A DNA stretch of 64,000 nt from Leucoraja ocellata (GCA_036785375.1 JAWMAR010000013.1:13144001-13208000); one strand, 5' to 3'. Shown: positions 3,371 to 59,884, counted from the stretch's first letter. The notes: generated by a model not told the origin, from the letters alone. Numbers and translations: made by a program.

Positions 3371-6300
3371 ATCTTTTTTTGAAAAGGAGAGAATAAATTG
3401 CATGCTATACTCTAAATTATCATTTTTTATTTTAATGATTTTATTTTAATCATAATGTATTTTATGTTCTCAATATTCTGGTTTGCTGCAACTTTAAGGA
3501 TCGTGGAGCACAGTAATTTCATAAGCACCTCAAATCCCACTGCTGGACCTCGCAATTTGCTTCTGCCACAATGTACACCAACTGCACGGCAGATAAAACC
3601 CAACCTTGTACAACATTTCCTCACTGATTGTTCCATTTCTTAATCCAATGATGAAGCTCACCATGATCTTTCTGCATATGGCCTGAAAGATGTAATTAGT
3701 ATTTTTTAATTATCTTGTCATGGATGGCACGGTGGGATTTGAGACTAAGGTATATATTTCTAACTGCAGTATTTCATTTCAACACGAGAGCTGTTCCCAG
3801 TGTTGGGCATCAAATGTCAAACTAAGCTTTCATTTTTATGGATTTCAAAACTGGAATTAGAGAGAAGTATTTAAAGTGAATATTTTTTTTGCAGTGGAGT
3901 CACTGACAAATTCCATATAAGTTTTTAGGCATTGCAGAAAGTAGAATTAACTGAATGTACTCTTAGCATTTTCATCAGAACATCAGTGTTACACTAAATG
4001 TTGTTTTTGATGATACTGGCAAATTGTATGTTTACTTGCAACGTCAGCGATCCGTTGATCTGAGGCAGATGTTTTGACAAATTGTTTTTTTTGATATGAG
4101 GCTTAGATTGATAAAGTTGGAAAGTATTTATATTGGGTAATGCATGAAACAATGCTTATATGTGAAATACCCTCAAATTAGGTCATTTGTCGGGGTAGCG
4201 TTTATGCTGGAAATATTTATTCATACAAATCAGAATTTAAAGGAAACTGATCAATTCTTAGCTTCTACCTGCTTTGTTTAAATCACTGGCAATGAAAAAT
4301 GCACAGAGAAATAACGCGTTCTGTTCGCATCCACATGATAATGCAAGCAATATTTACCAAGCTATAATACCCATTGTAAATATTCTCACTAAGGCTGAGT
4401 TCTATTAGCCTCAGGAAAAGCTACAAGTTAGTAATTGGTGATTTATTTGGACTCAACAATACCTAAATATTTATTTTAAATATTTCACGAGGGCTTTCTT
4501 ACAACCTACAGATTGTGACATTGTGTGGTTCAGTGTTCCCCCATAAAACAGCAAGCACATTGCATGCAACTACATAGCCAGCAATGTCTTTATTTTGTCC
4601 TGTAATCTGAAGAATGTACTTTATGTCAGCACACCCTTCCTCCAATTGATGTTAGCTACAATTAATCAGACCTTTTGTTTAAATGGCTCATGTAATTGTG
4701 AAAAAAACAAAGACTTTGGTAAAATACCGTGTTAAATAGCAATGCTGAACATGACGTTGCTGGAAATATAAAATAAGCTGGTGGGAAGTTATATTGTACA
4801 TAGCTCAGAGCTGAATTTAGCAGAATTGAAAATATTTGTTTAAGAATTCATTGAGCTGATTCTGACAGACAAAAACAAAGACAAAATATTCTTTTATTTC
4901 CAGTTTCAAAGACAAAATAATTGAAATCTTATATATTTAAATAATCTCATGTGCAGAAAGAATTATACAAATAATGAACTAGTGTTGGCAAATTCAGCTA
5001 ATTACCACCTTATTACCATTATGAATTATGATATTGAATTTCAGAATTATACATCAAACATGGTATAGCTGGAATCATAGCTGTGATGTATAGATATTTT
5101 AAAGAAAATAAGCTCTGTATAAATATATATCGACTGCTCACAGTTATTACTTTTTCCGATCTTTCATTAGTATTCCATTTCATTCTTATGCCACATTCAG
5201 AGCTTTCCAGCAGATTAGAGTGCAGACCAACCTAAATGGATTCCCCAGTGAAGTTGTTTTCAATAACAAAGCAAAAGGCTACAACCTGAGTTTTAAAGTG
5301 CTTTCAGTTTAATGCGTCATTGTTATTGTTGGCATTAAGTTGGAAAACTGATACCCATTTTCATCTTTGCTACTCATCACTGGTCACTGTCCAAAGTAAT
5401 TTAATTCTTGTACTTTAGTTTCATTGTATCAACATGTTCCGACAACCCAGATATATCTTTACATTGGGCTGGTAGTTTTTAGTAACATCTGATCCTGCTG
5501 AAGGATTTTGGAGTCCTCATTCTCCCCAAGTTGTCAATCTTACCCTGTTCTACTTTTAAATATTTTCCACACAAATGGTGCTTTTGATGACCTAAGAACT
5601 TCCCAAATGCTTTACATTGGTGAAGCAATTTTAGTTATTTAATCACTACAGATAGAATTACAGCAAGCTTTTACAAATAGCATGATACCATCAGATGATC
5701 TTGTTTTAATGATTTAAGGAGAAAATGTTCTGCAGGACGCCTGAGAAAAATTATTCTCTTTCAAAATAATGCCGAGGGTAGACACAACGTACTAGAGTAA
5801 CTCAGCGGGTCATGCAGCATCTCTGGAGGATATGGATAGGTGATGTTGTCGGTCAGGACCCTCCTTCAGAAGAAATGCCCCGACCCAACACGTTACCCGA
5901 TTTGATATGGTTAGTGAATTTCAAGATGGTTTGTACTCTTATGAGTTTAGAGTGAGTAGAGCAGGCGGTGAGCACACTATCCTTATGTGCTCCTGTGCTG
6001 ATGGTTATCAAGGACAGAGTGATGTTGTCAAATCATGTTGTGATCTGTGGATAAGGAAGTAGAGCTTGCATAGGGACATGCATAGAGACGTACAGAGACC
6101 CATTTCCCAAGAAGAGTCTCGACCCGAAACGTCACCCATTCCTTCTCTCCAGAGATGCTGCCTGTCCCACTAAGTTACTCCAGCTTTTTGTGCCTATCTT
6201 CACTCTGAATTAATAACAATTTGGAGGGGATGATGGTGTTAAAAGCTGAGCTGTAGTTGATAAGCAACTGCCTGATGTATGTGTTTAAGAGGGAACTGCA

Positions 6301-6383
6301 GATGCTGGAGAATCGAAGGTTACACAAAAAAGCTGGAGAAACTCAGCGGGTGCAGCAGCATCTATGGAGCGAAGGAAATAGGC

Positions 6384-6411
6384 AACGTTTCGGGCCGAAA
6401 CCCTTCTTCAG
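6384..6411 (-). ncRNA. Minimal hammerhead ribozyme motif in PLE pLTR
   Basis: CUGAAGA-A-GGGU(UUCG)GCCC-GAAA-CGUU; helix III is only the ACGU palindrome and helix I is weak. Confidence 0.7.
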
Positions 6412-7076
6412 ACTGATCGGGGGCGGGGGTGGGTGGGGACAAGAAAGGGAAAAGGAGGAGTAGCCAGAAGGCTGAGGGATGGGAGGAGACAGCAGGGGGG
6501 CTGAGGAAGGGGAGGAGACAGCAAGGACTAACAAAATTGGGAGAATTTGATGTTCATGCCCCCGGGGTGCAGACTCCCCAAACGGAATATGAGGTGCTGT
6601 TCCTCCAATTTCCGGTGCTGCTCGCTGTGGCCATGGAGGAGACCCAGGACAGAGAGGTCGGAGGCGGAGTGGGATGGGGAGTTGAAGTGCTGAGCCACCG
6701 GGAGGTCAGCTTGGTTATTGCGGACCGAGCGGAGGTGTTCGGCGAAACGATCGCCCAACCTCCGCTTGGTCTCACCGATATAGATCTGCTGACATCTAGA
6801 GCAGCGGACGCAATAGATGAGGTTGGAAGAGATGCAGGTAAACCTCTGTCGCACCTGGAACGATTGCTTGGGTCCTTGAACGGAGTCGAGGGGGGAGGTA
6901 AAGGGACAAGTGTTGCATCTCTTGCGGTTGCAAGGGAAAGTGCCCGGGGAGGGGGTGGACCGAGAGGGAAGGGAAGAATTGACAAGGGAGTTATGGAGGG
7001 AGCGGTCTTTGCGGAAGGCAGATATGGGGGGAGATGGGAAGATGTGGCGAGTAGTGGTATGGGGGGAGATGGGAAG

Positions 7077-7592
7077 ATCTTCCCATCTCCCCCCATATCT
7101 GCCTTCCGCAAAGACCGCTCCCTCCATAACTCCCTTGTCAATTCTTCCCTTCCCTCTCGGTCCACCCCCTCCCCGGGCACTTTCCCTTGCAACCGCAAGA
7201 GATGCAACACTTGTCCCTTTACCTCCCCCCTCGACTCCGTTCAAGGACCCAAGCAATCGTTCCAGGTGCGACAGAGGTTTACCTGCATCTCTTCCAACCT
7301 CATCTATTGCATCCGCTGCTCTAGATGTCAGCAGATCTATATCGGTGAGACCAAGCGGAGGTTGGGCGATCGTTTCGCCGAACACCTCCGCTCGGTCCGC
7401 AATAACCAAGCTGACCTCCCGGTGGCTCAGCACTTCAACTCCCCCTCCCACTCCGCCTCCGACCTCTCTGTCCTGGGTCTCCTCCATGGCCACAGCGAGC
7501 AGCACCGGAAATTGGAGGAACAGCACCTCATATTCCGTTTGGGGAGTCTGCACCCCGGGGGCATGAACATCGAATTCTCCCAATTTTGTTAG
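7077..7592 (+). pseudogene. C-terminal part of PLE ORF: Cys-rich linker + GIY-YIG endonuclease (mirror copy 6528-7043 on minus)
   Basis: Open frame IFPSPPISAFRKDRSLHNSLV..FTCISSNLIYCIRCSRCQQIYIGETKRRLGDRFAEH..E..GMN. Confidence 0.88.
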
Positions 7593-7708
7593 TCCTTGCT
7601 GTCTCCTCCCCTTCCTCAGCCCCCCTGCTGTCTCCTCCCATCCCCCAGCCTTCTGGCTACTCCTCCTTTTCCCTTTCTTGTCCCCACCCACCCCCGCCCC
7701 CGATCAGT

Positions 7709-7736
7709 CTGAAGAAGGGTTTCGGCCCGAAACGTT
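7709..7736 (+). ncRNA. Minimal hammerhead ribozyme motif in PLE pLTR
   Basis: ctgaagaagggtttcggcccgaaacgtt: intact CUGANGA/GAAA core with a UUCG-capped helix II. Confidence 0.7.
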
Positions 7737-8469
7737 GCCTATTTCCTTCGCTCCATAGATGCTGCTGCACCCGCTGAGTTTCTCCAGCTTTTTTGTGTAG
7801 CCTGATGTATGTGTTCTTATTGTCCAAACAGTCCAGTGCAAAGAGGAGAGCCAGAAATGTCACATCCCCTGGTGATCTATTGTGGTAGTAGGCAAATTGC
7901 AGTGAATAGAAGTTGATATTTGTCATAACTGACCTCTCAAAGCACCATCAACATGGACATTCATACCATCGGTCGGTCGTCATTGAGGCATGATACCTTG
8001 CTCTCCTTGTGAACCAATATTATTGATGCCCTTTTAAAGCAGGTGGGAATCTCGGACCTTTGTAATGAGAGGTTGAAGGTGTCTGTAAAATTTCCAGCCA
8101 GTTGGTCTGTGCAGGTTTTAAGAATGTGTCCAGGTATACCATCAGGGCCGGACGGTTTCTGAGCATTCACCCTCAAAGTATCTTCTGACATTGGCCTCGG
8201 TGACTGGGATTACAATGCCATTGAGAGCTATGGGGGCCAGAGAAGGCACATCAGCCACCTCCCTCTCACAGCCAGTATAGAACACCTCGAGCTCACCCAG
8301 GAGTGATGTCTCGCTGTCACTTGAGATATCATAGATATTTATAAAACCTTTATATACTGTATTTTGATATATTTTAGCTTGCTTTGTATTTTGTTTGCTT
8401 GAAATTTCTGAGGTTGTGAGAAATAGTTCGAGCAGCCCACAGGTTGTCCACTTGTACAATCTCAAAGAA

Positions 8470-9216: not shown

Positions 9217-10630
9217 CAGTGCCCTCCATAATGTTTGGGACAAAGAGCCACCATTTATTTATTTGCCGCTGTACTCCACAATTTGAGATTTGTAATAGAA
9301 AAAAATCACATGTGGCTAAAATGCATGTTGTCAGATTTTGTTAAAGGGTACTTGATAGAGGTCTTTAAAATGATGAGAGGGATAGACAGAGTTGACGTGG
9401 ATAAGCTTTTTCCATTGAGAGTAGGGAAGATTCAAACAAGAGGACATGATTTGAGAATTAAGGGACAAAAGTTTAGGGGTAACATGAGGGGGAACTTCTT
9501 TACTCAGACAGTGGTAGCTGTGTGGAATGAGCTTCCAGTGGGAGTGGTGGAGGCAGGTTCGATTTTATAAATTAAAAATAAATTGGATAGGTATATGGAC
9601 GGGAACGGAATGGAGAGTTATGGTCTGAGTGCAGGTAGAAGGGACTAGGTGAGAGTAAGTGTTTGGCACGGACTAGAAGGGCCGTGATGGCCTGTTTCCG
9701 TGCTGTAATTGTAATATGATATTTTTATACATTTTGGTTTCACCATGTAGAAATTACTGCTATGTTTATGCATAGTCCCCCATTTCAGGGCACCGTAATG
9801 TTTGGGACACATGGCTTCACGGGCATTTGTAATTGCCCAGGTGTGTTTAATGCAGTTATAAGAGAGCTTTCAGCACCTCAAGTCAAGTCAACTTTATTTG
9901 TCACATACACATACAAGATGTGCAGTGACCTAGACTTTCCTCCAGTCTTTCCATCACCTTTGGAAACTTGTATTGCTGTTTATCAACATGAGGACCAAAG
10001 CTGTGCCAATGAAAGTCAAAGAGGCCATTATGAGACTGAGAAAAAAGAATAAAACTGTTAGAGACATCAGCCAAACCTTAAGCTTACCAAAAATCAACTG
10101 TTTGGAACATCATTAAGAAGAAAGAGAGCACTGATGAGCTTACAAATAGGAAAGGGACTGGCAGGCCAAGGAAGACCTCCACAGCTGATGACAGAATTCT
10201 CTCTATAATAAAGAAAAGTCCCCAAACACCTGTACGACAGATCAGAAACACTCTTCAGGAGTCAGGTGTGGATTTGTCAATGACCACTGTCCACAGTAGA
10301 CTTCATGAACAGAAATACAGAGGCTACAATGGAAGGTGCAAACCACTGGTTAGCAGCATAAATAGGTTGGCCATTACAGTTTACCAAGAAGTACTTCAAA
10401 GAACAACCACAGTTCTGGAAAAAGGTCTTGTGGACAGATGAGACGAAGATTAACTGAGATCAGAGTAATAGCAAGAGCAAAGTATGGAGGAGAGAAGAAC
10501 TGCCCAAGATCCAAAGCATATCACCTCATCTGTGAAACACAGTGGTGGGGGTGTTATGGCCTGGGCATGTATGGCTGCTGAAGGTACTGGCTCATTTATC
10601 TTCATTGGTGATACAACTGCTGATGGCTCA
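9217..10630 (+). mobile_element. Tc1-family DNA transposon, 3'-truncated and frameshifted, with a CR1 insertion at ~9348-9720
   Basis: TA|CAGTGCCCTCC terminus; ATG at 9988 (MRTKAVPMKVKEAIMRL); later WTDETKIN and SVKHSGGGVMAWACMAA. Confidence 0.85.
9348..9720 (+). mobile_element. CR1 LINE 3' end
   Basis: LIEVFKMMRGIDRVD..TRGHDLRIKG..FFTQTVVAVWNELP. Confidence 0.85.
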
Positions 10631-13930: not shown

Positions 13931-14742
13931 ATATGGCGGATGTGCAGGAGTGGGCGCCATTTGTGTATGGCAGCCTGCCTGCAGTCCGTCTTTCCACCCT
14001 TTTTAGTGTCTAAAACCTTTTTTTGGAGGTCTAATCTTTTTATGTGGGGGGTGGTGGGGGGGAAGGGGGAAACTGTATTAATCCCAGTCCTACGTGGTCG
14101 GAGATGCGGTTTTCCTCCGAATCGCATATTCGTCCTCTCCGTGCGGCCTACCATCGAACTGGAGCGGCGTTTCCTGCCGGGACCACAGCTTCGGCGGCGG
14201 CACAGCGCTGGGACACCAACACGGAGCGGGCGATGCCTTACCGGGTCGCTGTGCGGTAAGCTCCGGAGTGCGGTGACCACTGACTCCAACATCGCGGAAC
14301 TGTGGCTGCGGAGCCTGGGTCCGAGATCGCCAGAGTCAGAGCTCCAACCGGCGCGGCCTGAGGACTTCGGGTGCCGCAGTCTCTGGGGAGGGAGCGGCCG
14401 CTTCAGACATTCCAAACCGCTGAGGAGTGTTCACCCGACGCCGGAGTTCCAGCTTACCAGCAAGAAGGCCTGAAAGCATCGGACTGGCTGAGGAGGCCAC
14501 AAATAGGCCCCGACCTCGGGTGGACTATGAGGAGGAGGAGAACTGGACTTTTTGGTGCCTTCCCTCACAGCGGATTCTGCTGTGGGGGGACGTTTCATGT
14601 TGAATTCTATAGTACTGTGTCTTTTTTCCTTTTTCTAATATATGGATGTATGGAAATCTAATTTCTTCTCTGTAAAGCACTTTGGCTTCAACGTGATTTG
14701 ATTTAAAAGTGCTATATAAATAAAAATTACTTACTTATTTAC
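13931..14742 (+). mobile_element. GC-rich non-autonomous retroelement with an L2-like 3' tail (copy 1)
   Basis: Homologous along its length to 24440-25340 (minus); ends tgtaaagcactttgg..gtgctatataaataaa plus a short tandem tail. Confidence 0.8.
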
Positions 14743-14850
14743 TAAATATAAAAACGAGAGAATTAAGGTAGGGAATACACACTAACAATACTCTTGCCTG
14801 ATCATCTGTGAATATAAATATATTTATATTAGACTATAAAGTGTGCAGGT

Positions 14851-18447: not shown

Positions 18448-18990
18448 CAGTCTACCCTTGTTATTACAGACCTCTTTATAACAGATTTTGGTTCCAGTGG
18501 ACGGAGTGTCCCCACAGTAAGCAGGGTGCTAGTTACACTGCATGAGGTCATTGAAACGGACAAGCATTGGCTTTGATCGACACGTGCAATGATGATGGAC
18601 ACAAAGTGTTGGAGTAACTCAATGGGTGAGGCAGCATCTCTTAAGAGCATGGATAAGGTAATGTTTCGGGTCAAGACCCACAGCTGGATAACGCTACATG
18701 CCCGAACGCCACGAGGCCAAGATTCTAGGCCCAGTGCAGACCGAGAGACTGAAGAGGGGTCTTGACCCGAAACATCACCTATCGATGTCCTCCAGAGATG
18801 TTGCCTGACCTGCTGAGTCACTCCCGCACTTTTTGTGTCTTTTTGTGTATTAACTAGCATTTGCAGTCATTTGTTTCTACTGCTTGTGCATTAATACTCT
18901 ATTACTCGATAATCCCTTACTTGGTTATAGTAGACAATCAGCAATAACAAACACCGTTTTCCCCCAATGGTCTGTTATAAGGGTTTCCTG
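18448..18990. mobile_element. pogo/Tigger-like MITE carrying a hairpin PLE pLTR (~18597-18880)
   Basis: ta|cagtctacccttgttattacagacc ... ggtctgttataagggtttcctg, imperfect TIRs. Confidence 0.6.
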
Positions 18991-19042: not shown

Positions 19043-19719
19043 AGGACCTGTCTCACTTACGTGTCCTTGGCACGCAAATTACGCGATCTCGTGGTCGCGT
19101 TGAGCCGAGACAGTCGAGTGAAGGTCGGGCGCGGTTACATGCGCACGTCATTTGAAGATGGACACAAAGCTGGAGTAACTCAGCGGGACCGGCAGCATCT
19201 CTGGAGAGAAGGAATGGGTGATGTTTCATGTCGAGACTCTTCTTCTGTCTGAAAAGAAGTCTTGGCCCAAAACGTCACCCATTGCTTCTCTCCAGAGATG
19301 CTGCTGGTCCCCCTGAGTTACTCCTGCATTTTGTGTCTACCTTCAATTTTCTTGGCCCCGCTCTGGGAGTAGAAGTGGGGCGGATCTGGACTGCAACGGC
19401 CGTGAGCCCCAGGCCGAGTTCGACGATCGTTTGCCTGCTTCTGCTGCTGTTGGAGGTGAGACGTTGCGTCGCGCCAGGGTCTTGGGCCTGTCCCACATTG
19501 GCCGTCAGTTCTGCGGCAGGCTGTTGGCGCGCAAAGATTTCGTTCACTGCAAGAATTTCGGAGCCCCGCGCGATGTCGGGACCGGCCCCACACAACTCCA
19601 TACCACTCCGCGCTTCTAAGAGGGACCGGGCCCGCGCGGCCATACGGTGCCCGTATGCCTCAAGCGACCATGAGGTCGCATAATTTGCGAGCCAAGGACG
19701 CGTAAGTGGGACAGGCCCT
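19043..19719. mobile_element. PIF/Harbinger-type MITE with a nested hairpin pLTR (~19152-19347)
   Basis: ~60-bp TIRs (aggacctgtctcacttacg.. / ..cgtaagtgggacaggccct); TAA TSD at 19040-19042 and 19720-19722. Confidence 0.85.
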
Positions 19720-19760: not shown

Positions 19761-20230
19761 ACAGTAAACCCTCATTAAAACAAACCAGAATGGGGGAATG
19801 ATGTCCGTTATTGCCGATTGTCCGCTATAACCAAGTAAGGGATTATCATTGTATGTAATTAAAACAAATAACTGAAGATGATGGTTAATACACAAAAGGA
19901 CACAGAGGTGGAGTAACCTAGTGCCAGGCAGCATCTCTGGAGACCATGAATAGGTGGCACCGGGACCCTTCTTCATACTGATTCAGTCTGCTGAGTTACT
20001 CCAGCAGTTTATATCGTTTCACCTTAAAACTAGGCGCAGATGCCGCTGGTCTGCACCAGCGAGCTCTTCGTCACTGGTTGACGTGGCTGTTGCTATGGAT
20101 CACGTTGTTGCCCCGACTGGACGTGCTTTCTTCAAGCCGCTGTGACCAACAGGATACACTTGATCACCATTGGGCTCCCTCCCTTCTTACCCGGCAGTTG
20201 GTGATACCTTCCAAAGTGGAGCATGTGGGC
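19761..20230. mobile_element. Second copy of the pogo/Tigger-like MITE + pLTR composite, inverted relative to 18448-18990
   Basis: ta|cagtaaaccctc terminus; ctataaccaagtaagggattatc is the reverse complement of ~18906-18932; followed by the pLTR tail. Confidence 0.65.
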
Positions 20231-21512: not shown

Positions 21513-21727
21513 TGCAAAATGTGTTGGAAGGAACTACAGATGCTGGTTTAAACCGAAGATAGACACAAAAAGCTGGAGTAACTCAGCGGGACAGGCAGCA
21601 TCTCAGGAGAGAAGGAATGGGTGACGTTTTGGGTCGATACCCTTCTTCAGGCTCGGTTTCGACCCATTCCTTCTCTCCAGAGATGCTGCATGTCCCACTG
21701 AGTTACTCCAGCTTTTTGTGTCCATCT
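21513..21727. mobile_element. Hairpin pLTR-only PLE insertion (hammerhead motif 21623-21650, minus)
   Basis: Inverted arms; 11-bp TSD attgtttcaca at 21502-21512 and 21728-21738. Confidence 0.85.
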
Positions 21728-22109
21728 ATTGTTTCACAGGCTGTCTGCACCTTGTACCCATTCATTGTGTGTTCACTAAGGTGGTAAATGTGGGCAGTAA
21801 TGCAGACCTGAATCTGCTGTGGTCTAGAGATTGAGGGAATTTAGATTTTTTTAACATTCCAGGGAATATGGCAACTTACAGGACCAATGAAACCATTCTA
21901 AGTGACTGCATGAATAATGAATTGAAACTAGATCAGTTAACATTGTACCACAACATGCCCAATAACACATAGCAAATCTAAATATAATATAACAATCTAT
22001 TTATTATAGTTCAAGGCATAATGTTTTAAAATAGCAATGTGGGTCATTAAAATAAATATTGTATTTGGGAACATTTATTAAGTTAGATTTATCAATATTC
22101 TGTTGGCAG

Positions 22110-23629: not shown

Positions 23630-24439
23630 GTATGAATATTGATGAAGGCAGAGCAGTAGTAGTTTTATGTGCAGATCTTAATGATATGGCATTTGGCAAG
23701 GTCCTGTGGGTAGGTTAGTACCAAAGGTAAAGGTACACGTGATCCAAGACGAGGTGGCTAATTGAATCTAAAATTGACCCGGTAATAGGAGGCAGAGAAC
23801 AGTGGTGGAAGGATATCTTTCTGATTGGAAATCTGTGACCAGTGATGTACTGCAGGAACTGTGGCCTTTGGAGACACAGGGAACTGCAGATGTTGCTCTA
23901 CAAAATACGACAAAGTATTGAAGTAACTCAGCGAGTCAAGCTGCATCTCTAGAGAATATGGAAAGTTGACTTTTCAGATTGGGACCCTTCTTCAGACATT
24001 TCAGATTCATGTTCTCCAGAGATGCTGGTGACCTGAGTTACTCCAGTCTTTGTGTCTTTTGCAGTGACCTTTGTTGCTTTATATACAGCAACAATTCTGA
24101 TATTAACATGGAGGGTATGATTAGTAAGTTTGTGGAGAACATGGAAGGTGGTAATGTTGTGGATAGCGAGGTAGGTTGTCTAAACAGTCTATAGATCAGG
24201 TAGAAAGTTTTGTGGCGATTTGAGAGGTGGAGTTTATTCCCGCAAAGTGTGAGGTAGTGCATTTTGGGTCATAGGACAAATGTAATAAATGGTAGGCCTC
24301 TTAAGGATTGTCAATGAACAGAGGGACCTTGGAGTTCAAGTCCATAGTTTATGAAAATAGCAACATTGGCAAAAGTGGAAAATGGCTTCATAGGTCAGGG
24401 CACAGAATATAACATAAGTTATGTTGCAACTTTACAACA

Positions 24440-25339
24440 TCATCATCATCAGTTTTATTTATAAAACACGTTTTAAGTCAACTCGCATTGACACCAAAGT
24501 GCTTTACATAAATTAAATAATAAGTTCCATTACAAACCATAGAAAAAGGTTAAAAAAAATGAATAAAATGGACACAACACATTATAGAGTTCAACACAAA
24601 CGTCCCCCCACAGCAGAATCAAAACTTTCCACTGTGGGGAAAGGCACCAGAAAGTTAAGTCCTCTTCCTCTGTGAAAAACCCGAGGTCGGGGCCCATTTG
24701 TGGCCTTGCAGCCAGTCCGATGATTTTCCGGGCCCTCTTGCCGTGAAGATGGAACTTCAGCGTCGGGTGAAACATTCCTCAGCGGCTTGGAAAAGTCTGG
24801 AGCGGCTGCCTCCTCCCCAGAGACCGGGGCACTCGTAGCCCTCAGGCCGTGCCGGTTGGAGCTCCGACCCTGGCAAACTCGAACCCTGGCTCTGCGCCGC
24901 TCCAAATCCAGCGCCGCCCGTGGCTGGACGCCCGCAGCCACAGCTCCGCGATGTTGGGATCGACAGCCACAGCACTCCGGAGCTTACCGCATGGCGACCC
25001 GGTAAGGCATCACCCGCTCCGTGTTGGTATCCCAGCGCTGCGCCACCGCCGCCGAAGCTGTAGTCCCGCCCGGTCCCGATAGAAAACGCCGCTCCATTCT
25101 CGATGGTAGGCCGCGAGGACGGGGCAAAGAAGCAGCTTGGAGGGATGCTGCCTCTCCGACCAGGTAGGGGACTAAGAAATAAAGTTTCCCCCTTCCCCAC
25201 CCCCACCCCCCACATAGAAGACCTCCACTAACATTTTTTAACAGGACTTAAAATAAAATAAAATAAAAAAAGGTGTAGAGACGGACTGCGGGCAGGCTGC
25301 CATACACAGACGGCGCCCACTCCCGCACATCCGCCATCT

Positions 25340-25872: not shown

Positions 25873-26761
25873 ATCTTTCTTTCTAGTGTTTCCTACAAAA
25901 CACTGGTTAGACTGCACTTGGAATACTGCGTGTAGATCTGATCGCCACTTTATAGGAAGCATATACTGTAGTTATTGCTGGGAAGAATGCACAAGATTAA
26001 CCAGGATATTGCTGGGATTGAAGAGCTTTAGTTGCAGGGGGAGATTGGATAGGGTGGGCTTGTTTACCCTCAAAGGGTTGACCTGATAAAAGTTAACTAA
26101 ACTATAAGTGCCATAAACAGGTTGGTAGTCAAAATATTTTTTCATGGTTGGTCATTTTATTTGGCAGTTTTGCAGAATATCTCAAATTAATTAGCTAGTG
26201 TGGTTCTGAACATCCGGTATCCTGTCATGTTACATCTCTATCACACTCCCATTTTGACCTCTGACACTGTTGCACAAAGCGAGGTGTAAGACTAAGCAGC
26301 ACCTTCCCTCTTGACTGGGCACATTGGTTCAATGGTAGCAATACTGAATTCAACAATTTCACGTATAAGTTTATTATTGTTACATGTGCTGAGATACTGT
26401 GAAAAGCTTTGTTTTGCATGCTATCCAAGAGAGATACCAGACAATCTGTTCAAACTCAAGTACAATAGATAGAGCAAAGGGGAAGATGCAGAGTGCAGAA
26501 TATAGTTCTCAGCATTGTAGAGCAACAGTTCTATATACAGTGGCTTGCAAAAGTTTTCATACCCCTTGAACTTTTCCACATTTTGTCACGTTACAACCAC
26601 AACCACAAACGTAAATGTATTTTATTGGGATTTTATGTGACAGACCAACACAAAGTGGTGCATAATTGTGAAGTGGAAGGAAAATGATACATGGTTTTCA
26701 AATTTTTTTACAAATAAAAAACTGAAAAGTGTGTCGTGCAAAAGTGTTCAGCCCCCCTCAG

Positions 26762-28131
26762 TCAATACTTTCTAGAACCGATGGGTTCGGCCCGAAACGT
26801 CGCCTATTTCCTTCGCTCCAAAGATGCTGCTGCACCAGCTGAGTTTCTGCAGCAATTTTGTGTACCTTCGATCTTCCAGCATCTGCAGTTCCATCTTGAA
26901 CACTTTGTCTACTCCACTGCGATATCTCCTCAAGGTATGCCTACTTTGAAGAAGTTCTCCTCCTCTCTCCGGAGACAGTTTCACAACCTCCTCTCTAACT
27001 GCACACCTTCTGTGATCCCCCCTGCCCTCCAACTGTACGACCTGGGGACCTTGCGTCAATTTCTGCAGCAATTTTGTGTACCTTCGATCTTCCAGCATCT
27101 GCAGTTCCTTCTTGAACACTTTGTAGAACCACCTTTCTCTGCAATTACAGCTGCAAGTCTTTTGGGGTATGTCTCTACCAGCTTTGCACATCTAGAGACT
27201 GAAAATTTTGCCCATTCTTCTTTGCAAAATAGCTCAAGCTCAGTCAGATTGGATGGAGAGCGTCTGTGAACAGCAATTTTCAAGTCTTGCCAGAGATTCT
27301 CAATTGGATTTAGGTCTGGACTTTGACTGGACCATTCTAACACATGAATATGCTTTGATCTAAACCATTCCATTGTAGCTCTGGCTGTATGTTTAGGGTC
27401 GTTGTCCTGCTGGAAGGTGAACCTCCGCCCCAGTCTCAAGTCTTTTGCAGACTCTAACAGGTTTTCTTCCAAGATTGCCCTGTATTTGGCTCCATCCATC
27501 TTCCCATCAACTCTGACCAGCTTCCCTGTCCCTGCTGAAGAAAAGCATCCCCACAGCATGATGCTGCCACCACCATGTTTCACAGTGGGGATGGTGTGTT
27601 CAGGGTGATGTGCAGTGTTAGTTTTCCGCCACACATAGCGTTTTGCATTTAGGCCAAAAACTTCAATTTTGGTCTCATCTGACCAGAGCACCTTCCTCCA
27701 CATGTTTGCTGTGTCCCCCACATGGCTTGTGGCAAACTGCAAACGGGACTTCTTATGGCTTTTTTTCAACAATGGCTTTCTTCTCGCCTTCTTCCATAAA
27801 GACCCGATTTGTGGAGTGCACAACTAATAGTTGTCCTGTGGACAGATTCTCCCACCTGAGCTGTGGATCTCTGCAGCTCCTCCAGAGTTACCATGGGCCT
27901 CTTGGCTGCTTCTCTGATCAATGCACTCCTTGCCTGGCCTGTCAGTTTAGGTGGACGGCCATGTCTTGGTAGGTTTGCAGTTGTGCCATACTCTTTCCAT
28001 TTTCGGTTGATGGATTGAACAGTGCTCCGTGAGATGTTCAAAGCTTGGGATATTTTTTTATAACCTAACCCTGCTTTAAACTTCTCCACAACTTTATCCC
28101 TGACCTGTCTGGTGTGTTCCTTGGGCTTCGT
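26762..28131 (-). pseudogene. Tc1 DD34E transposase, inactivated
   Basis: WSDETK, FQQDNDPKH, SPDLNPIENLW, GRPPK. Start ATG mutated to ACG at 28131, frameshift near 27785, PLE insertion just before the stop. Confidence 0.92.
26780..27117 (+). mobile_element. Partial-tandem PLE pLTR insertion inside the Tc1
   Basis: TSD acttt(c/g)tagaacc at 26767-26779 and 27118-27130; direct repeat ~26843-26906 / ~27060-27123. Confidence 0.85.
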
Positions 28132-29137
28132 GATGCTGTTTGTTCACTAATGTTCTCTAACAAACCTCAGGCCTTCACAGAACAGCTGTATTTATACTGA
28201 GATTAGATTACACACGTGGACTCTACTAATTAGGTGACTTCTGAAGGCAATTGGTTGCACTGGATTTTATTTAGGGGTATCAGAGTAAAGGGGGCTGAAC
28301 ACTTTTGCACGCCACACTTTTCAGTTTTTCATTTGTAAAAAAATTTGAAAACCATGTATCATTTTCCTTCCACTTCACAATTATGCACCACTTTGTGTTG
28401 GTCTATCACATAAAAGCCCAATAAAATACATTTACGTTTGTGGTTGTAACGTGACAAAATGTGGAAAGGTTCAAGGGGTATGAATACTTTTGCAGGCCGC
28501 TGTATGAAGTCCAATGGCCACAATGCTGAGATTTGGATTTCAAGACTGCAACTGGCCAGCTAAATGAGTGTGAGCCGTTATTGGGAACTGGCAGGGGCTG
28601 TTTGCATTAACAGACACGGATCACATGTTCTGTCTCGTTCCTTCTTCCTGGAGATGATAAGAACTGATATCCCTAGTCTCCCGTGTTTAGCTGTACACCT
28701 CTTCCATTAAGTTTGTTACTTTAGAGAAATCTCCAGGTTGATCAGGCTCTGCAGTGAATCAAGGGCAGCAACTTCATTTACCTACAACTGGTGATGACAA
28801 GAGGCGGTTTGTCAGCACCTTGAGTCGGTATTACCAGCCACCAGCTATGGCCCATACTCACTGTACCAGTCGGAGTGCAGCTCAGAATTGAATGGATACC
28901 TCACTCGCCCCAGCCCCAGTCATCACAGGTAGACTGGACACAGAGCCAAAGAGTACTCTTTGTTACAAGTGTGCTGGCAGACAGTAGGGATTAGACCAAG
29001 TTTCCAGCAGCACGCAGCCCCAATGGACCTCTCTTTTAAACTGTGGGATTACGTAGCTGAGAATGTTTGGTGTGGAGGATCAAGAATATTCCAACAAGTG
29101 AGTGCTCAACAGGCTATAACGTTACAGGTTAATAGTC

Positions 29138-29352
29138 GGAGAAACTCAGCGGGTGAGGCAGCATCTATGGAGCGAAGGAAATAGGCAACGTTCCGGGTCG
29201 AAACCCTTCTTCAGATACATTGAAGAAAGGTTTCAACCTGAAACATTGTCTATTTCCTTCTCTCTATAGATGGATGCTGCCTCACCTGCTGAGTTTCTCC
29301 AGAATTTTTGTCTACCTTCAATTTTCCAGCATCTGCAGTTCCTTTTTAAACA
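29138..29352. mobile_element. Hairpin pLTR-only PLE insertion with two opposed hammerhead motifs
   Basis: Inverted arms around ~29217; TSD tac(a/c)ggtt(a/g)atagtc at 29123-29137 and 29353-29367. Confidence 0.85.
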
Positions 29353-29934
29353 TACCGGTTGATAGTCATTGGGTTGCTCAATCATAGAGGAATTCTGATT
29401 ATCTTCCATATGTTAGGGTACTGTTTGATTCACCTCTATCTCAGCGCTGTGACCACACCACATCCCCCTAGCCCTCACACGCAGCTTCTTTTTTAATGAG
29501 AAATGGACAAATCTATTCGTGATCAAATGATCATCAGTTTTCTCCCTCCATTGATGCTAATGACATGTCGGGTATTTCTAGCATTTTCTTTCATTTCAGA
29601 AATCCAGCAACGGTAGGCATGATTCCAACATTATTTTTCTTTCTACTTCCACTGTTTTACATCTTATTCACATCAGCTATGATTACCAAGCCTCCATTGC
29701 CCTCTTTCATCACTAGCATCACTTTGTCTTTCATCTTTTTATCTGCTTCCATTACCACCCATGCATTCCCTGCATATCCATACGCTTGTCTAAATGCCTC
29801 TTAAATGCCACTCTTAACTGCTTCCAATATCACCCAAGTAATTTGCGTTCCAGGCACCCACCACTCTTATAAAAGAAAACGTGCCTTGCAGATCTCTTTT
29901 AAACTTTCCCCTCATACCTTCAAGCCAAGTCCTC

Positions 29935-35669: not shown

Positions 35670-38200
35670 CTCATGCCCCTGTTCTACTCACTCTCTACCC
35701 AGGAGTGTGTAGCCAGATACAATTCCAACGCCATCTGTAAATTCACTGACGATGCTATCATTGTTGGACAATTTACGTGTAATGATTAGTCAGAGTATCG
35801 GAGGGAGATCAATTATCTGATTGAATGGTGCCAGAACAACAACCTTGCTTTCAACGTCAGCAAGACCAAGGAGTTCATTGTTGCCTTTGAAGGCCAAGGA
35901 TCCGCAAACCTGCCTTTATCGACGGGTCGGTGGTGGAGAGAATCAACAACTTTAAATTCCTGGGCATGCACATCTCTCAAGAAATCTCCTGGGCCCAGAA
36001 CATTGAGGCAATCATAAAGAATCATCAACGCCTCTACCTCCTTAGCAGATTGAAGAGATTTGATATGTCAACAAATATTCTCTTGACCTTTTACAGGTGT
36101 GTGGTAGATAGCATATTGACTGGTTGCGTCACGGCCTGGTTCGACAAGTCGAAAGTCCAGGAATGAAGATGAAAATCTTGTAGATAGACAGAAAAAGCTG
36201 GAGTAATTCAGCGGGACAGACAGCATCTCTGGATAGTAGGAATGGGTGACGTTTTGGGTCGAGACCTTCAGACTGGTTAGGGATAAGGGAAAACAAGCGA
36301 TATGGACAGTGATGTGTAGAGAAAAAGAACAATGAATGAAAGATTTGCAAAAATGTAACGATGATAAAGGAAACAGGCCATCGTGAGCTGTTTGTAGGGT
36401 GAAAATGAGACGCTAGTGCGACTTGGGTGGGGGAGCGATAGAGAGAGGGAATGTCGGGGCTACTTGAAGTGATAGAAATCAATATTCATTACCACTGGGC
36501 TGTAAGCTGCCCAAGCGAAATATGAGATGCTGTTCCTCCAATTTGTGTTTAGCCTCACTCTGACAATGGGGGAGACCGAGGACAAAAAGGTCTGTGTAGG
36601 AAGGGGAAGGAAAATTAAAGTGTCCGGCTACCGGGAGATCAGGTTGGTTCATGCGGGCTGAGCGAAGGTGTTCCGCGAAACGATCGCCCAGTCTGCATTT
36701 GGCCTCGTCGATGTAAAAGAATCCACATCTTGAACAACGGATACAGTGAAGGTGGTGCAAGTGAAACTCCGCCTAACCTGAAAGGACTGTCGGGGTCCCT
36801 GGACAGAGTTGAGGGAGGAGGTATAGTGACAGGTGTTGCATCTTCTGCGGTTGCAGGGGAAGGTACCTGGGGAGGGGATAGTTTTGGGTGGGAAGGGATG
36901 AGTTAACCAGGGAGTTGCAGAGGGAACGGTCTCTGCGGAAGGCGGAAAGGGGTGGAGATGGGAAAATGAGGCTAGTGGTGGGATCCCGTTGGAGGTGGCG
37001 GAAAATTCGGAGGGTTATGTGTTGTATGCGACGGCTGATGGGATGGAAGTTTCTGTTTCGACTAGGGGGAGGGGGAACAAGGGCGGAGCTGCGGGGTACC
37101 GAGGAGACACGAGTGAGGGCCTCGTCTATGATGGGAGAGGGAAACCCCCGTTCCCTAAAGAATGAGGACATCTTGGATGATCTTGTATGGAACACCTCAT
37201 CTTGGGCGCAGATGCGGCGTAGACGGAGGAATTGGGAGTAAAGGATAGAGTCTTTGCAGGAAGCAGGGTGGGAAGACATTTAGTCAAGATAGTTGTTGGA
37301 GTCCATGGGTTTGTAATAGACGTCAGTCAATAGTCTATTTCCTGTGATGGAGACTGAGATCAAGAAAGGGAGGGAGGTGTCGTAGATGGTCCAAGTAGAT
37401 TTGAGTGCAGGATGAATATTGATGGTGAAGTTGATGAAGTCCATGAGTTCTGCATGGATGCAGGAAGTAGCACTGATGCAGCCATCAATGTAATGGAGAT
37501 AGAGTTCGGGGATAGAGGCCAGTGTACGCCTGGAACAGGGGTTGTTCAACGTACCCTACAAAGAGGCAGTCATAGCTGGGGCCCATGCGGGTGCCCATAG
37601 CTACGCCTTGGACGGAGGAAGTGGGAGGAGGCAAAGGAGAAGTTGTTGGGGGTGATGCCTAACTCCGCTAGACGAATGGTTCTGCGGTCGAGGAAGAAAC
37701 GGAGGGTTTTAACGCCTTCCTGGTGGGGAATGGAGGTGTAGAGTGACTGAACGTCCATAGTAAAGAAAGTATTGGACATCGTCTGGTCCATCACGCATAC
37801 CGACCTCCCCACCATCGAACGGATCAACGAGAGGTGCTGCCTCAAAAAGGCAGCCAGCATCATCAAGGATGCTCACCACCCTGGCCACACTCTTATTTCA
37901 CTGTTGCCATTGGGAAGTGGGGAATAGGAGATTGAAAACTGCAATGCCCAGGTTCAAGAACAGCTGCTTCCCGACAAAACCATCAGGCTCTTGAACACTT
38001 CCAACACCAGCTAACAATGAAGTATGAAGTGTCTTGTTTGCATTAAGGACTAGGAGCTTTTTTGCACTAATATTGGCTTTTTAATTCATTGACTTTTTTT
38101 TGTTTATTTTGTTATCTATGAATATGTGTTTACAGACCAGTTATGCTGTTGCAAGTAAGAATTTCATTGTTGTCGTGGAACATATGACAATTAAAAACTC
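35670..38200 (+). mobile_element. Rex1/Babar-like LINE split by a PLE
   Basis: KFTDDA, VERINNFKFLG..CVTAWFD (35670-36170), resuming at TDLPTIE..CLKKAASIIKD (37765-38200). Confidence 0.8.
36180..37762 (-). mobile_element. Penelope-like (Neptune-type) element, 5'-truncated, frameshifted
   Basis: FTMDVQSLYTSIPH, YLHYIDG, SSHPASCKDSI.YSQFLRLRRIC, decayed GIY-YIG, pLTR at the left end. Confidence 0.9.
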
Positions 38201-38756: not shown

Positions 38757-40600
38757 ATGAAGAAAGGAAGAGGTGGAGCCAGTGGGCTGAGGGAGAGCTG
38801 AGAAGGAGAGGAGAAAATAGGGACTACCTGAAATTAGAGAAGTTAATGTTCATACCGCTGGGGTGCAAATTGCCCAAGCGAAATATGAGGTGCTGCTCCT
38901 CCAATTTACGGTGGTCCTCATTCTGGCCATGGAGGAGGCCCAGGATAGGAAGGTCAGATTCGGAATGGGAGGGGAGTTGAAGTGCTGAGCCACCGGGGAT
39001 CAGGTTGGTTATTGCGGACCGAGCGGAGGTGTTGGGCGAAGCGATCGCCAAGCCTACGCTTGGTCTCACCGATGTAGAGCAGCTGACATCTAGAGCAGTG
39101 GATGCAATAGATGAGGTTGGAGGAGGTGCAGGTGAACCTCTGCCGCACCTGGAAAGACTGCTTGGGTCCGTGAATGGAGTCAAGGGGGGAGGTAAAGCGA
39201 CAAGTGTAGCATTTCCTGTGGTTGCAAGGGAAGGTGACCGGAGACGGGGTGGTTCGGGTGGGAAGGGACGAATTGAGCAGCGAGTTACGGAGGGAGCGGT
39301 CTCTGTGGAAAGGGGAGGAGATGGGAAGATGTGGCAAATGGTGGGATCACGTTGGAGGTGGCGAAAATGTTGGAGGATTATTTGTTGTATGTGACGGCTG
39401 GTAGGGTGGAAGGTGAGGACAAGAGGGACTCTGCCCTTGTTACGAGTGGGGGGATGGGGAGTGAGAGCAGAGATACGGGGTATAGAAGAGACCCTGGTGA
39501 GAGCCTCATCTATAGTAGAAGAGGGGAACCCCTGTTCCCTGAAGAATGAGGACATCTCCGACGCCTCATCCTGGGAGCAGATGCGGCGTAGACGGAGGAA
39601 TTAGGAGTAGGGGATAGAGTCCTTACAGGAAGAAGGGTGGGAAGAAGTGTAGTCTAGACAGCCATGGGAGTCAGTGGGTTTATAGTGGATGTCGGTCAGA
39701 AGTCCATCACCTGCGATGGAGATGGTGAGATCAAGAAATGGTAGGGAGATGTCGGAAATGGTCCAGGTGTATTTGAGTGGTGGATGGAAGTTAGTGGTGA
39801 AATGGATGGAGTCAGTGAGTTGTGTGTGGGTGCAGGAGGTAGCACCAATGCAATAGTTGATGTTGCAAAGGTAGAGTTCGGGGATAGGGCCATGGTACGC
39901 CTCGAACAAGGATTGTTCGACGTACTCTACTAAGAAGCAGGTGCATGCGCGTGCCCATAGCTACGCCTTGTGTTTGGAGGTAATGGGAGGAGTCAAACGA
40001 AAAGTTATTAAGTTATTAAAGGTAAGGACCAGCTCCGCTAGGCGGAGGAAAGAATCAATAGACGGGGATTGGTTGGTTCTCCGGTCGAGGAAGAACCGGA
40101 CGGCTTTGAGACCCTCCTGGTGGGGGATGGAGGTGTAGAGTGACTGGACATCCATGGTGAAGATGAGGGAATGGGGGCCGAGAAAACGGAAGTCCTGGAG
40201 TCGATGAAGAGCGTGTGTGGTGTCTTGAACATAGGCAGGGAGGGATTTAACCAGGGGGGATAGAATGGAGTCCAGGTATGTGGAAATATATTCGGTAGGA
40301 CACGAACAGGCAGAAACAATGGGTCTGCCAGGACAGTCAGGTTTGTGGATTTTGGGGCGAAGGTAAAATTGGGCCGTGCGGGGCTGGGGAACTAAGAGGT
40401 CGGAGGTTTGGGAGGGCACAGAGCCGGAGTTGATGAAGTCAGTGATGATGCTAGAGATAGTGACCTGGTGCTTGTCAGTGGGGTCATGGTCCAAGGATAA
40501 GTAGGAGGAGGTGTCAGAGAGTTGGCGCGTGGCCTCAGCCTTGTAGAGATCAGCACGCCAGACTACCACGGCACCTCCCTTGTCGGTAGGTTTGATAATC
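38757..40600 (-). mobile_element. Penelope-like (Neptune-type) element with RT and GIY-YIG remnants
   Basis: IIKPTDKGGAVVVW, PKIHKPDCPGRPIVS, FTMDVQSLYTSIPH, YIGETKRRLGDRF. Confidence 0.92.
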
Positions 40601-40929
40601 CAGTCTTGATTCAGCGTGATTGTTTTGCTCTCCCTCTCATCCATTGAATAGAGAATTACTCTTTTACAATTCCTCAATCCTTTGTGGTCTGTGGCCGGCA
40701 ATGTGGCACTGAGACTGCTGTTGTGTCATGAGATCCTCCCACAGTGGGAAAAAAAGAGAGACTCGTATTCACATTGTCTTTCTGGAGCTCTCAAAGCATG
40801 ATGCATGCAGCCAGTGAAGCCACTGTTGTAAAGCAGGTATCAAAGCAGGTCATTTGAACGCAACAAAAAGAAATGCAATTTAAAAACAAATATCTAGGTT
40901 CTGAGACATTGGCTACAAAATGACTATGC

Positions 40930-51089: not shown

Positions 51090-51499
51090 TTACTATATTG
51101 TGCAGTTGCATACACTGATTAAGAACTGAAAGATAAACTAGTAGGATTTTCAGTAGAGATCCCTTCAGTTATTTTATTCAAACACTTTGTGCATGGTTCT
51201 AGAAGCAGTTCTGGGATCCTGCTTTGAATATTTATCTTTATCAGGGCTGCCAACATTGGGTGAGAGTTGAGAGTGAGAAATTGCAAGGGAGCGTAGCGAC
51301 CGAGGGAGGGGGGGGGGGGGGGGGGGGGGCTATGCAGCTCAGTTTAGAGGTACAGAGCTTTTGCATTTTTCAGCTTGAAATTGTGCAATCTGGTGCATAC
51401 TGTAGCGAGTTTTTTAACTAACACTTGAATGTAACAGTTATGCTTTAAATTGGATTAGGTATGAATAAGGTTAGGCTAAATTACGTTCCTAATTACATT

Positions 51500-51693
51500 G
51501 GAGAAATTCTACGGGTGAGGCAGCATCTATTGAGCGAAGGAAATAGGCGAAGTTTCGGGTCGAGACCCTTCTTCAGACTCGACCTGAAACGTTGCCTATT
51601 TCCTTTGCTCCATAGATGCTGCATAGCCCGCTGAATCTCTCCTGCATTTTTGTCTACCTTTGATTTTCCAGCATCTGCATTTCCTTCTTAAAC
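51500..51693. mobile_element. Hairpin pLTR-only PLE insertion
   Basis: 14-bp TSD ttcctaattacatt at 51486-51499 and 51694-51707; inverted arms. Confidence 0.88.
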
Positions 51694-51897
51694 TTCCTAA
51701 TTACATTCCACAATAGAGCCAGGCTCTGCTCAACAGGTGCAACACATGAATGACCTTACTATATTCATGTATGGAAATCAGATTATAATTCAGGCTGTTA
51801 TGCATATATATAGAGAAAAAACATTGAAACAAGGCAAGAGGAGTCAGACTTCCATCACTGTTCTGCACAAATAAATAAATCAACCTTACCCTTTGAC

Positions 51898-52409
51898 AGT
51901 ACACAAAAATGCTGGAGAAACTCAGCGGGTGCAGCAGCATCTATGGAGCGAAAGAGATAGGCAACGTTTGGGGCCAAAACCCTTCTTCAGACTGATAGGG
52001 GGTGGGAGGAGGCGGGGAGCAGAAAGGAAAAAGGAGGAGGAGGAGCCCGAGGTCTGAGGGAGAGGTAGGAAGGGGAGGAGACAGCAAGGGTTAACAGAAT
52101 TATGAGAATTCAATGTTCATGCCACCAGGATGCAGACTCCCCAAGCGGAATATGAGGTGCTGTTCCTCCAATTTCCGGTGTTGCTCACTCTGGCCATGGA
52201 GGAGACCCAGGACAGAGCGGTCGGATACGGAATGAAAGGGGGAGTTGAAGTGCTGAGCCACCGGGAGGTCAGGTTGGTTAGTGCGGACCGAGTGGAGGTG
52301 TTCGGCGAAACGATCGCCAAGCCTACACTTGGTCTCACCGATATAGATCAGCTGACAACTAGAGCAGCGGATGCAATAGATGAGGTTGGAGGAGGTGTGG
52401 CAGTAAACA
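51898..52409 (-). mobile_element. PLE 3' fragment (GIY-YIG + pLTR)
   Basis: SSNLIYCIRCSSCQLIYIGETK; 13-bp TSD cttaccctttgac at 51885-51897 and 52410-52422. Confidence 0.9.
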
Positions 52410-54371: not shown

Positions 54372-55109
54372 GATTCCATCTTCTTGAATCACATATCCCG
54401 GGAAAATGACTATGCATTCACCTTATATATTCCCCTCATGGTTTTTACTCATCTCTAAAACAATTTTTGCTTTATTTTGAATTTCTAGCACCTGCAGATT
54501 TTGGTTCCATGAATGTCAAATGTACTGCAGTTTGCCATTTTAAATAGTGTGCTTAAAAGTCTATAGCAATTAAATTGCTCGTTCTTTACGGGAAACCCGA
54601 CGACAGAAAACTCATTGGTGAGTGTGGAGGAGATCTGGAAGCCTTGGGCGAATTGAATTGTTCTTGACTTTATGTATTTACGTTTCAAAATTTGAGCGTG
54701 AGAAATTTGTGATCAGCTTGAGAGCGTGAGAATTTCGTGAAATGTGTGAGTCTCACGCTCAATGCGTGAGAGTTGGCAGCCCTGTCTTTATGCAATGTTG
54801 ATTTTGGTCAGTCCACAAAATGGACAGGAAAAAATAATGGTGGAAGAGCTACCTATGCAGGTTTGCTGCAAATTTATGTTCAGACATGAGAATTTGATGC
54901 CCCATATCTTAGTCAAACAACACAGAACCAGGTCCTTCGGCCTAACTCCATACCGACCTAGGTGCCATTTGCCTACATATATATCGCTCTAAATCTTTGC
55001 CATCCATATTTGTGTCCAAATGACGTTTAAATATGGTTATTGTACATGGTTCACCTACCTTCACTGGAAGCTCAGTCCATATATCTAAGTGAAAACATTG
55101 CCCACAAAA

Positions 55110-55305
55110 TGTTTAGGAAGGAACTGCAGATGCTGGTTTAAACCAAAGATAGGCACAAAATGCTGCAGTAACTCAGCGAGACAGGCAGCATCTCTGGAGA
55201 GAAAGAATGGGTGACGTTTTGGGTTGGGAAGTCTGAAGAAGGGTCTTGATCCGAAACGTCACTCAATCCGTCTCTCCAGAGATGCTGCCTGTCCCGCTGA
55301 GTCTG
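55110..55305. mobile_element. Hairpin pLTR-only PLE insertion (hammerhead motif 55233-55260, +)
   Basis: Inverted arms; ctgaagaagggtcttgatccgaaacgtc. Confidence 0.75.
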
Positions 55306-59260: not shown

Positions 59261-59884
59261 TTCTGAAAAATATTTTCAGACCAACCATATCTTGTCAGGA
59301 ACAATTAAGATTTATACTAAATTAAGACAGTAGCATTAATTTGGCCAATTTCTTTCTGTTAAGAAGGTATCGGATGATCAATTCGAGTCAATTAAGCAGA
59401 TTAAGGGATACAGTACGCTAGATACAGGAATATAATTTCCTCTGGGGTTAAATCAAAATGGCATAATCTTATGTTAGATCCAGTATATTTAAGGGTGAAA
59501 TTCAGAAGCACATTTTTCAAAACACAGGTTTGTGAAAAGTTAAAACTCTCTCCTGCCAAAAAAAAGGTTGATTTTATGTGATAGATAGATTTTTTAAGGT
59601 TATGGAACTAAAAGGATGTGGATCAATAGAGTTGAGGAAAAGTTCAGCCATGGTCAGGAATACAAATGTTCTTGTGGGGTTGGATCAGTGTAAATGGGTA
59701 GGTGATGGTCAGCACTGGTTCACTGTGCCGCTTCTCTGCTGCATCTGTCTATGGGACCGATTTCTGATATTACACAGGGTGTTTTGAGGCTCCGCGTGTC
59801 AGAAGAGGAAACATGGGACCCGACAGAAGCCATCACAAAATAAGTGAGGGCAAAGTAGGAGTGTAGATAATTAACTCAAAACCA

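Follow-up and report, generated by a model that had tools for sequence, protein, structure and literature searches.

How does a Penelope-like element (PLE) come to lie in a genome as two truncated copies that face each other? The PLE literature describes the formation of the inverted 5′ copy as unresolved (PMC3846280, PMC8557442, PMC11167929; published work is cited here and below from excerpts of these papers). We addressed this question at one insertion, positions 6286–7799 of a 64,000-nucleotide stretch of Leucoraja ocellata DNA (GCA_036785375.1, JAWMAR010000013.1:13144001-13208000; hereafter the window), which a first-pass annotation had singled out as a near-perfect Penelope palindrome with a fold-back signature at its centre. 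We find that the locus is a dead, truncated copy in an ordinary published PLE layout, a new instance rather than a new layout. Its centre carries a re-copied piece of 21 nt, and on balance the insertion probably arose by priming at both target nicks, with the cDNA ends joined over a 2-nt overlap.

One target-site duplication encloses two inverted arms

The insertion and its immediate surroundings are composed of the following features.

6270..6285, unstranded: left target-site duplication (TSD), 16 nt, the last 5 nt being microhomology with the element 3′ end
6286..6320, minus strand: element 3′ 'tail', left arm only
6321..7043, minus strand: left arm, a 5′-truncated PLE 3′ end (part of the endonuclease coding region and 3′ untranslated region)
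6384..6411, minus strand: minimal hammerhead-like motif of the left arm (CUGANGA, one bulged base, 4-bp stem II, GAAA, palindromic CG, GUU; custom descriptor)
7044..7057, minus strand: continued element sequence, 14 nt, left arm only (alignment with older copies and family contigs)
7058..7078, minus strand: 21-nt re-copy of 7023–7043
7058..7097, unstranded: perfect palindrome, 40 nt, formed by the re-copy and the right-arm start
7077..7799, plus strand: right arm, the same 5′-truncated 3′ end, tail-less
7077..7592, plus strand: open C-terminal coding remnant, 171 codons and stop, without a start and without reverse transcriptase (RT)
7709..7736, plus strand: minimal hammerhead-like motif of the right arm (custom descriptor)
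7800..7815, unstranded: right TSD, 16 nt

Over 723 nt, the two arms are reverse complements except at four positions, 6475/7645, 6548/7572, 6675/7445 and 6809/7311; the first-pass annotation had given the same arms and about four mismatches. Its single TSD around the whole structure was borne out, as the two copies are identical at 16 of 16 positions and enclose both arms, with no TSD at the centre; the highest score among 300 random position pairs was 10. The tail, which has no counterpart on the right, was likewise correctly assigned to the left arm alone. The final 5 nt of the left TSD (6281–6285) double as the 3′ end of the family, as seen in the window copies at 26776+, 27058+ and 29217+, so that the tail measures 35–40 nt and overlaps the target. 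Such overlap with the target occurs at both outer junctions, amounting to 5 nt on the left and 3 of 4 nt on the right. The arms have diverged by 0.28% per arm (95% interval 0.08–0.71%). Together with the one TSD, this agrees with the earlier claim of a recent insertion as a single unit, and in sequence terms the insertion is young. At the boundary between arm and tail (6320–6321), the left arm is 1 base longer than the family loose-end consensus and the other copies in the window.

The centre contains a re-copied piece of the element

At the centre, 7023–7043 recurs as a direct repeat of 21 nt, and a perfect palindrome of 40 nt has AGATCT at its middle. Both had been reported in the first pass, and both exceed the background, for which the 99th percentile among 300 random 121-nt stretches was 13 nt for a direct repeat and 12 nt for a palindrome. 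The 33-nt spacer between the arms, previously said to hold 13 nt of continued element, consists on recounting of 14 nt of continued element (7044–7057) and 19 nt of the re-copy. The re-copy shares its last 2 nt (AT, 7077–7078) with the beginning of the right arm, and its end coincides with the element position at which the right arm starts. The continued 14 nt align with older copies at 36.5–37.3 kb and 38.8–39.7 kb; family contigs 15 and 16 of sequencing run X2 match up to 7057, where contig 15 departs from the window sequence.

The first-pass annotation took the loop-less palindrome as the mark of a fold-back. Beyond the 21-mer, however, the right arm is the complement of 7022 downward and not of 7057. 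Its template would therefore have been either the original 21-mer or a separate cDNA, and both would give a perfect palindrome with no need of a loop-less turn. We conclude that the 40-nt palindrome is probably a by-product rather than a hairpin turn. The purine-rich end (7000–7078) is predicted to have nearly no self-fold (−1.6 kcal/mol), with its 3′ end unpaired.

The arms derive from a GIY-YIG PLE

We read the following motifs, in order, from the coding remnant of the right arm: CNRKRCNTC, LIYCIRCSRCQQIYIG, RFAEH, QHF, LEEQHLI and GMN, then the stop. They represent a CX4CxxC linker, LIY-CxxC-YIG, RxxEH, HF and the conserved E and N, and so provide the C-terminal GIY-YIG domain with a CCHH motif and the R, H, E and N residues of EN+ PLEs, in support of the original Penelope identification. 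The Pfam GIY-YIG match (E = 2.5e-4) scored 21.7 bits, below the cut-off of 22.6; among Atlas neighbours at 0.96–0.97, GIY-YIG occurs in 13–56% of members, in agreement with the GIY-YIG call. A CX2-5CxxC linker upstream of a CCHH-type GIY-YIG is a feature of Neptune and Nematis PLEs (PMC8557442), and CNRKRCNTC has this form. Judged by these motifs, each arm is the 3′ end of a GIY-YIG PLE, of Neptune/Nematis type by the linker. Both copies are truncated and RT is absent from both arms; the arm orientation places their truncated 5′ ends towards each other and their 3′ ends on the outside.

The hammerhead-like motif at 7709–7736, mirrored at 6384–6411, comprises the core, the bulge, a G-C first pair and the palindromic CG, minimal features as described in PMC4209133. 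Its predicted stem II has 4 bp, versus 7–8 bp quoted for Schistosoma, and an Rfam search of the insertion returned no hammerhead match. By its sequence features, the motif appears to be the minimal hammerhead of an EN+ PLE terminal repeat. Many family contigs cease to match at 6413–6414, just upstream of the hammerhead core, where their flanks are unrelated; most short copies in the window also begin just upstream of the core, and 5′ ends seem to cluster there.

Two decayed relatives on the minus strand (36178–37766 and 38797–40725) are 73% and 83% alike to the locus. Upstream of their GIY-YIG part, both carry stretches (MDVQSLYTSIPH, QGVAMGTRM and YIDGCI) that resemble RT motifs; a Pfam scan of these RT-like stretches gave an RT match in 0 of 6 pieces. 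No inverted partner was found for either copy. Two other identities for the locus were rejected. A miniature inverted-repeat transposable element or other DNA transposon with terminal inverted repeats does not fit its unequal ends (the tail), arms of retroelement coding sequence and TSD of 16 nt. As for a microRNA precursor, all 51 Rfam matches (MIR1437 and others) were sub-threshold, the best reaching 134.4 of 168 bits, and they follow the perfect stem.

Head-to-head pairs recur across the window

We surveyed PLE 3′ ends within the 64-kb window using a profile built from ten window copies and found 37, compared with none in shuffled sequence. All seven neighbours within 10 nt of each other are head-to-head, whereas random placement would give 0.06 (seven was reached in 0 of 20,000 trials), and the strand-shuffle P is 3e-5; within 400 nt, 9 of 15 are head-to-head (P = 0.00075). 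The window thus holds 11 head-to-head pairs, counting that of the locus and an older pair at 59880–60915. Given ten further pairs in the window and its earlier publication, the layout is no surprise. Eight of the pairs are short.

18588–18867, 19152–19349, 19866–20013, 21518–21735, 23878–24057, 29131–29353, 51497–51694, 55108–55303: short head-to-head PLE pairs

Among the nine other short or close pairs, TSD scores rose above the background maximum of 10 in three (11, 14 and 11), came near it in one (9) and lay within it in five; of the three above background, the TSD at 21.5 kb does not line up with the arm ends. The short pairs at 29.1, 51.5 and 55.1 kb have TSDs of 14–15 nt, of which one is perfect (51486–51499 / 51694–51707), and the short pair at 18.7 kb has an unrelated spacer of 64 nt. 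The older pair at 59880–60915 is about 1 kb long and extends into the endonuclease coding part; its arms, about 67–75% alike, meet near 60500 with matched ends and carry the tail on the right, and no TSD was found there. Across the 11 pairs the tail is present on exactly one arm in nine, on neither in two and on both in none, and it may lie on either side. Arm identity proved uninformative as a test of common source, as the partner ranked first only for the locus pair and between 2 and 28 of about 32 in the other nine pairs tested. A solo, tail-less, 5′-truncated copy of the same family lies at 51897–52397 with a 13-nt TSD (51885, 52410).

These counts bear on whether the locus could have arisen in two steps, with a later copy inserted at the 5′ end of an earlier one. 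PLE ends are dense at 37 in 64 kb, and the pair 5769/6108, 70% alike with a 237-nt gap and without a TSD, resembles what chance would produce and may consist of chance neighbours. The orientation bias among close neighbours, the single 16-nt TSD with none at the centre and arms that are 99.4% alike make two insertions at the locus very improbable.

They also bear on whether the palindrome is a non-autonomous element that spread as a ready-made unit, the locus being one copy. Some joints near the hammerhead end, among those listed, do occur at many times single-copy depth. Yet all 11 centres in the window differ from one another, no second copy of the locus centre was found within it, and family contig 15 of X2 leaves the window sequence beyond 7057, so that we consider such a unit highly unlikely. 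Contigs of all four public runs compared contain, among the joints listed, joints from a minus-strand end at 5821–5847 to a plus-strand end at 6109–6146, which we read as candidate head-to-head junctions at other loci.

The first-pass annotation had proposed surveying PLE hairpin centres for short re-copied segments. Within the window, the 21-nt re-copy is the sole clear case among the 11 centres; perfect palindromes at the other ten measure at most 10 nt, none above background. The centre of the pair at 23.9 kb (23964–24008) has a direct repeat of 9 nt, at the 95th percentile of the background, and is possibly a second, small re-copy. Traces of re-copying in older pairs may have been lost with age. 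Neither short re-copied segments at inverted PLE junctions nor twin priming in PLEs were the subject of any paper found, in a search with limited coverage of subscription papers and none of supplements. Short templated insertions of about 5–34 bp are reportedly a general phenomenon at joined DNA ends.

The layout matches that of published EN+ PLEs

Inverted head-to-head insertions of EN+ PLEs with pseudo-long terminal repeats (pLTRs) are known from Adineta vaga (Pen2a_Av, Pen2 and Pen3a), in which head-to-head is the commonest form of PLE insertion (PMC3846280). As there, the inverted copy adjoins at the 5′ end and one TSD surrounds the whole (9–10 bp in A. vaga); the A. vaga elements also share with the locus a tail on one repeat only, of 31 bp, and an inverted repeat that overlaps its partner (PMC3846280). 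Unlike in A. vaga, both locus copies are truncated within the coding region, with arms of 723 nt and a TSD of 16 nt. In A. vaga, pLTR 5′ ends bear palindromes of 18 bp and 38 bp, for which self-priming was proposed (PMC3846280), whereas the palindrome of the locus stems from the 21-nt re-copy at the joint. An inverted 5′-truncated copy and a one-sided tail of 30–40 bp are given as general PLE traits in Fig. 2 of Craig et al. 2021 (PMC8557442). The locus has the truncated copy with its adjacent inverted copy in one TSD and a one-sided tail in that range; in contrast to the scheme as excerpted, it lacks a partial tandem and a full-length open reading frame. With layout and self-priming both in print (PMC3846280, PMC8557442), neither the arrangement of the locus nor the fold-back idea is new.

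The locus in contigs from sequencing runs

Among the 24 sequencing runs listed, 20 contain part of the left flank; no RNA run is among those listed as containing it, which carries no information on expression. We compared contigs of four of the 24 (X1, X2, X3 and X6) with 5300–7078, that is, with the left flank, left arm and spacer. Run X1 gave the left flank without any difference at a depth under 5, and may be the source sample and so not independent. In the family contigs listed, the right arm carries the family-majority letter at all four arm differences. Its letter accounts for 93, 90, 90 and 69% of depth at 6475 in X1, X3, X2 and X6, for over 99% at 6548 and 96–98% at 6675 across the four runs, and for 75, 75, 75 and 99.9% at 6809 in X1, X3, X2 and X6. 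Two of the left-arm variants are nearly private to that arm, that at 6548 is a CpG change, and that at 6475 matches older copies.

A fold-back read or assembly artefact had been named as what could overturn the locus, and none of the contig pieces listed crosses the centre (7057/7058) or the left junction (6285/6286). Against an artefact stand the intact TSD, a right flank that is new sequence and not a mirror of the left, four arm differences with the family-majority letter on the right, and old decayed pairs of the same build elsewhere in the window; we regard it as scarcely credible. An empty site is weakly hinted at in X2 (organism B), where a contig of 120 nt at depth 22.6 fits 6175–6285 and then continues with nine letters unlike the insertion.

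Priming from both target nicks is favoured over snap-back

Two-strand cutting and two start sites bounding the tail are taken here from in vitro work on another PLE. The protein of the Anolis carolinensis Poseidon element PAc, for which a dimer is modelled, cuts and extends both strands and has two RT start sites, the stretch between them being the tail (PMC11167929). PAc also has a minimal hammerhead near the end (PMC11167929), as does the locus with its hammerhead-like motif. Poseidon lacks the CX2-5CxxC linker that is present at the locus, and the RT start site of PAc is not homologous to the cut DNA (PMC11167929), as opposed to the 5-nt and 3-nt target overlaps here.

From the anatomy, family, single TSD and junction overlaps that we observe, we infer the following order of events. 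Cleavage of the two target strands by the GIY-YIG nuclease would leave nicks 16 nt apart. The left target 3′ end would pair with the RNA 3′ end over 5 nt and prime a cDNA from the tail end, and the right target 3′ end would prime a second cDNA at an internal start site 35 nt further in, leaving the right arm without a tail. Both cDNAs would halt at nearly the same element position, whereupon the left end would re-prime and copy 21 nt up to the end point of the right cDNA. The two 3′ ends would then join by their self-complementary AT, each templating the second strand of the other.

Priming at both nicks is consistent with the one TSD around both arms, with a right arm that ends at the tail boundary, with the target overlaps at both outer junctions, with the near absence of a self-fold at 7000–7078, with a re-copy that ends at the right-arm start, as a run-off copy of that end would, and with a tail that is never on both arms among the 11 window pairs. 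About 25% of family depth in X1, X3 and X2 (0.1% in X6) is without the right-arm letter at 6809. The letter on the left may therefore go back to variation in the source, in which case two RNAs may have given rise to the arms. In LINE-1 twin priming, the second nick serves as a primer and a different, upstream part of one RNA is inverted. At the locus, unlike this, the same 3′ part was copied twice; the likeness would lie in the second nick as primer, and the short re-copied piece resembles the templated insertions at DNA breaks.

Several observations weigh against priming at both nicks. After more than 720 nt, the two arms end no more than 14 nt apart, and the ends are likewise matched in the older pair at 59.9–60.9 kb; independent cDNAs would not end alike, and the model therefore has to assume coupling. 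At all 21 of the other family-variable sites listed between 6434 and 7023, the arms carry the same letter, and shared letters at such sites are what one cDNA would give. Position 6809 is a CpG on the left, and decay of the right arm explains that difference equally well; the chance of all four differences falling on a single arm is P = 0.125. For the point at which the re-copy begins (7057/7058), no overlap offers an explanation. The in vitro work, moreover, used a Poseidon-clade element, and inverted products are not shown in the excerpted text (PMC11167929).

Several of these points are better served by the snap-back of a single cDNA, the main idea of the first-pass annotation. After a run of 772 nt, the cDNA would slip back 35 nt, re-copy 21 nt, pair its AT with the AT at 7042–7043 over a 33-nt loop and copy itself, and a nuclease would resolve the hairpin at the tail boundary. 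Matched arm ends here and at 59.9–60.9 kb then need no extra assumption, and subfamily letters common to both arms are accounted for; junction palindromes are taken as self-priming in PMC3846280, and the tail is ascribed to nuclease resolution of an intermediate in PMC8557442. Snap-back nonetheless requires a 2-bp anchor at the homologous AT, one of eight AT sites in the preceding 100 nt, in a stretch without a stable fold. A further cut would have to fall at the tail boundary, a position that PMC11167929 accounts for as an RT start site, and no perfect palindrome above background occurs at any of the other 10 centres. We consider snap-back plausible and less than probable. The arm differences and the other data do not decide between it and priming at both nicks. 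The latter, which the first-pass annotation had mentioned in brackets as priming from both sides, is the better fit to the tail boundary. Whether the centre is in addition a record of two separately primed PLE cDNAs joined through coupled termination within about 15 nt, a run-off copy and a 2-nt seal is a more doubtful proposal, which we make tentatively.

Genomic context and implications

We scanned 133 of the 153 stop-to-stop stretches of at least 62 residues in 1–32,000 against Pfam, leaving out the 3 shortest and 17 over PLE pieces, and found no host exon there; the three matches were all Tc1/mariner transposase. An intronic position of the insert and transcription through it are thereby neither supported nor excluded. 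A Tc1/mariner element at 26599–28447 has 165-nt inverted repeats (96%), minus-strand transposase pieces and PLE end pieces at 26776 and 27058, and a further transposase piece lies at 10082–10438. An inverted pair of dispersed repeats (14192–14416 / 24787–25051) is 82–88% alike and about 10.5 kb apart, and a perfect palindrome of 20 nt at 14811–14830 lies just upstream of a PLE end.

If transcribed, the insert would fold into a duplex RNA of about 720 bp (729 pairs predicted). A single locus matters little in itself, and this one is of use as a clean data point on the origin of the inverted 5′ copy in PLEs. If the centre does record two joined cDNAs, a genome-wide catalogue of young, long pairs in this family, which is very abundant in the sequenced runs, could separate self-priming from priming at both nicks.

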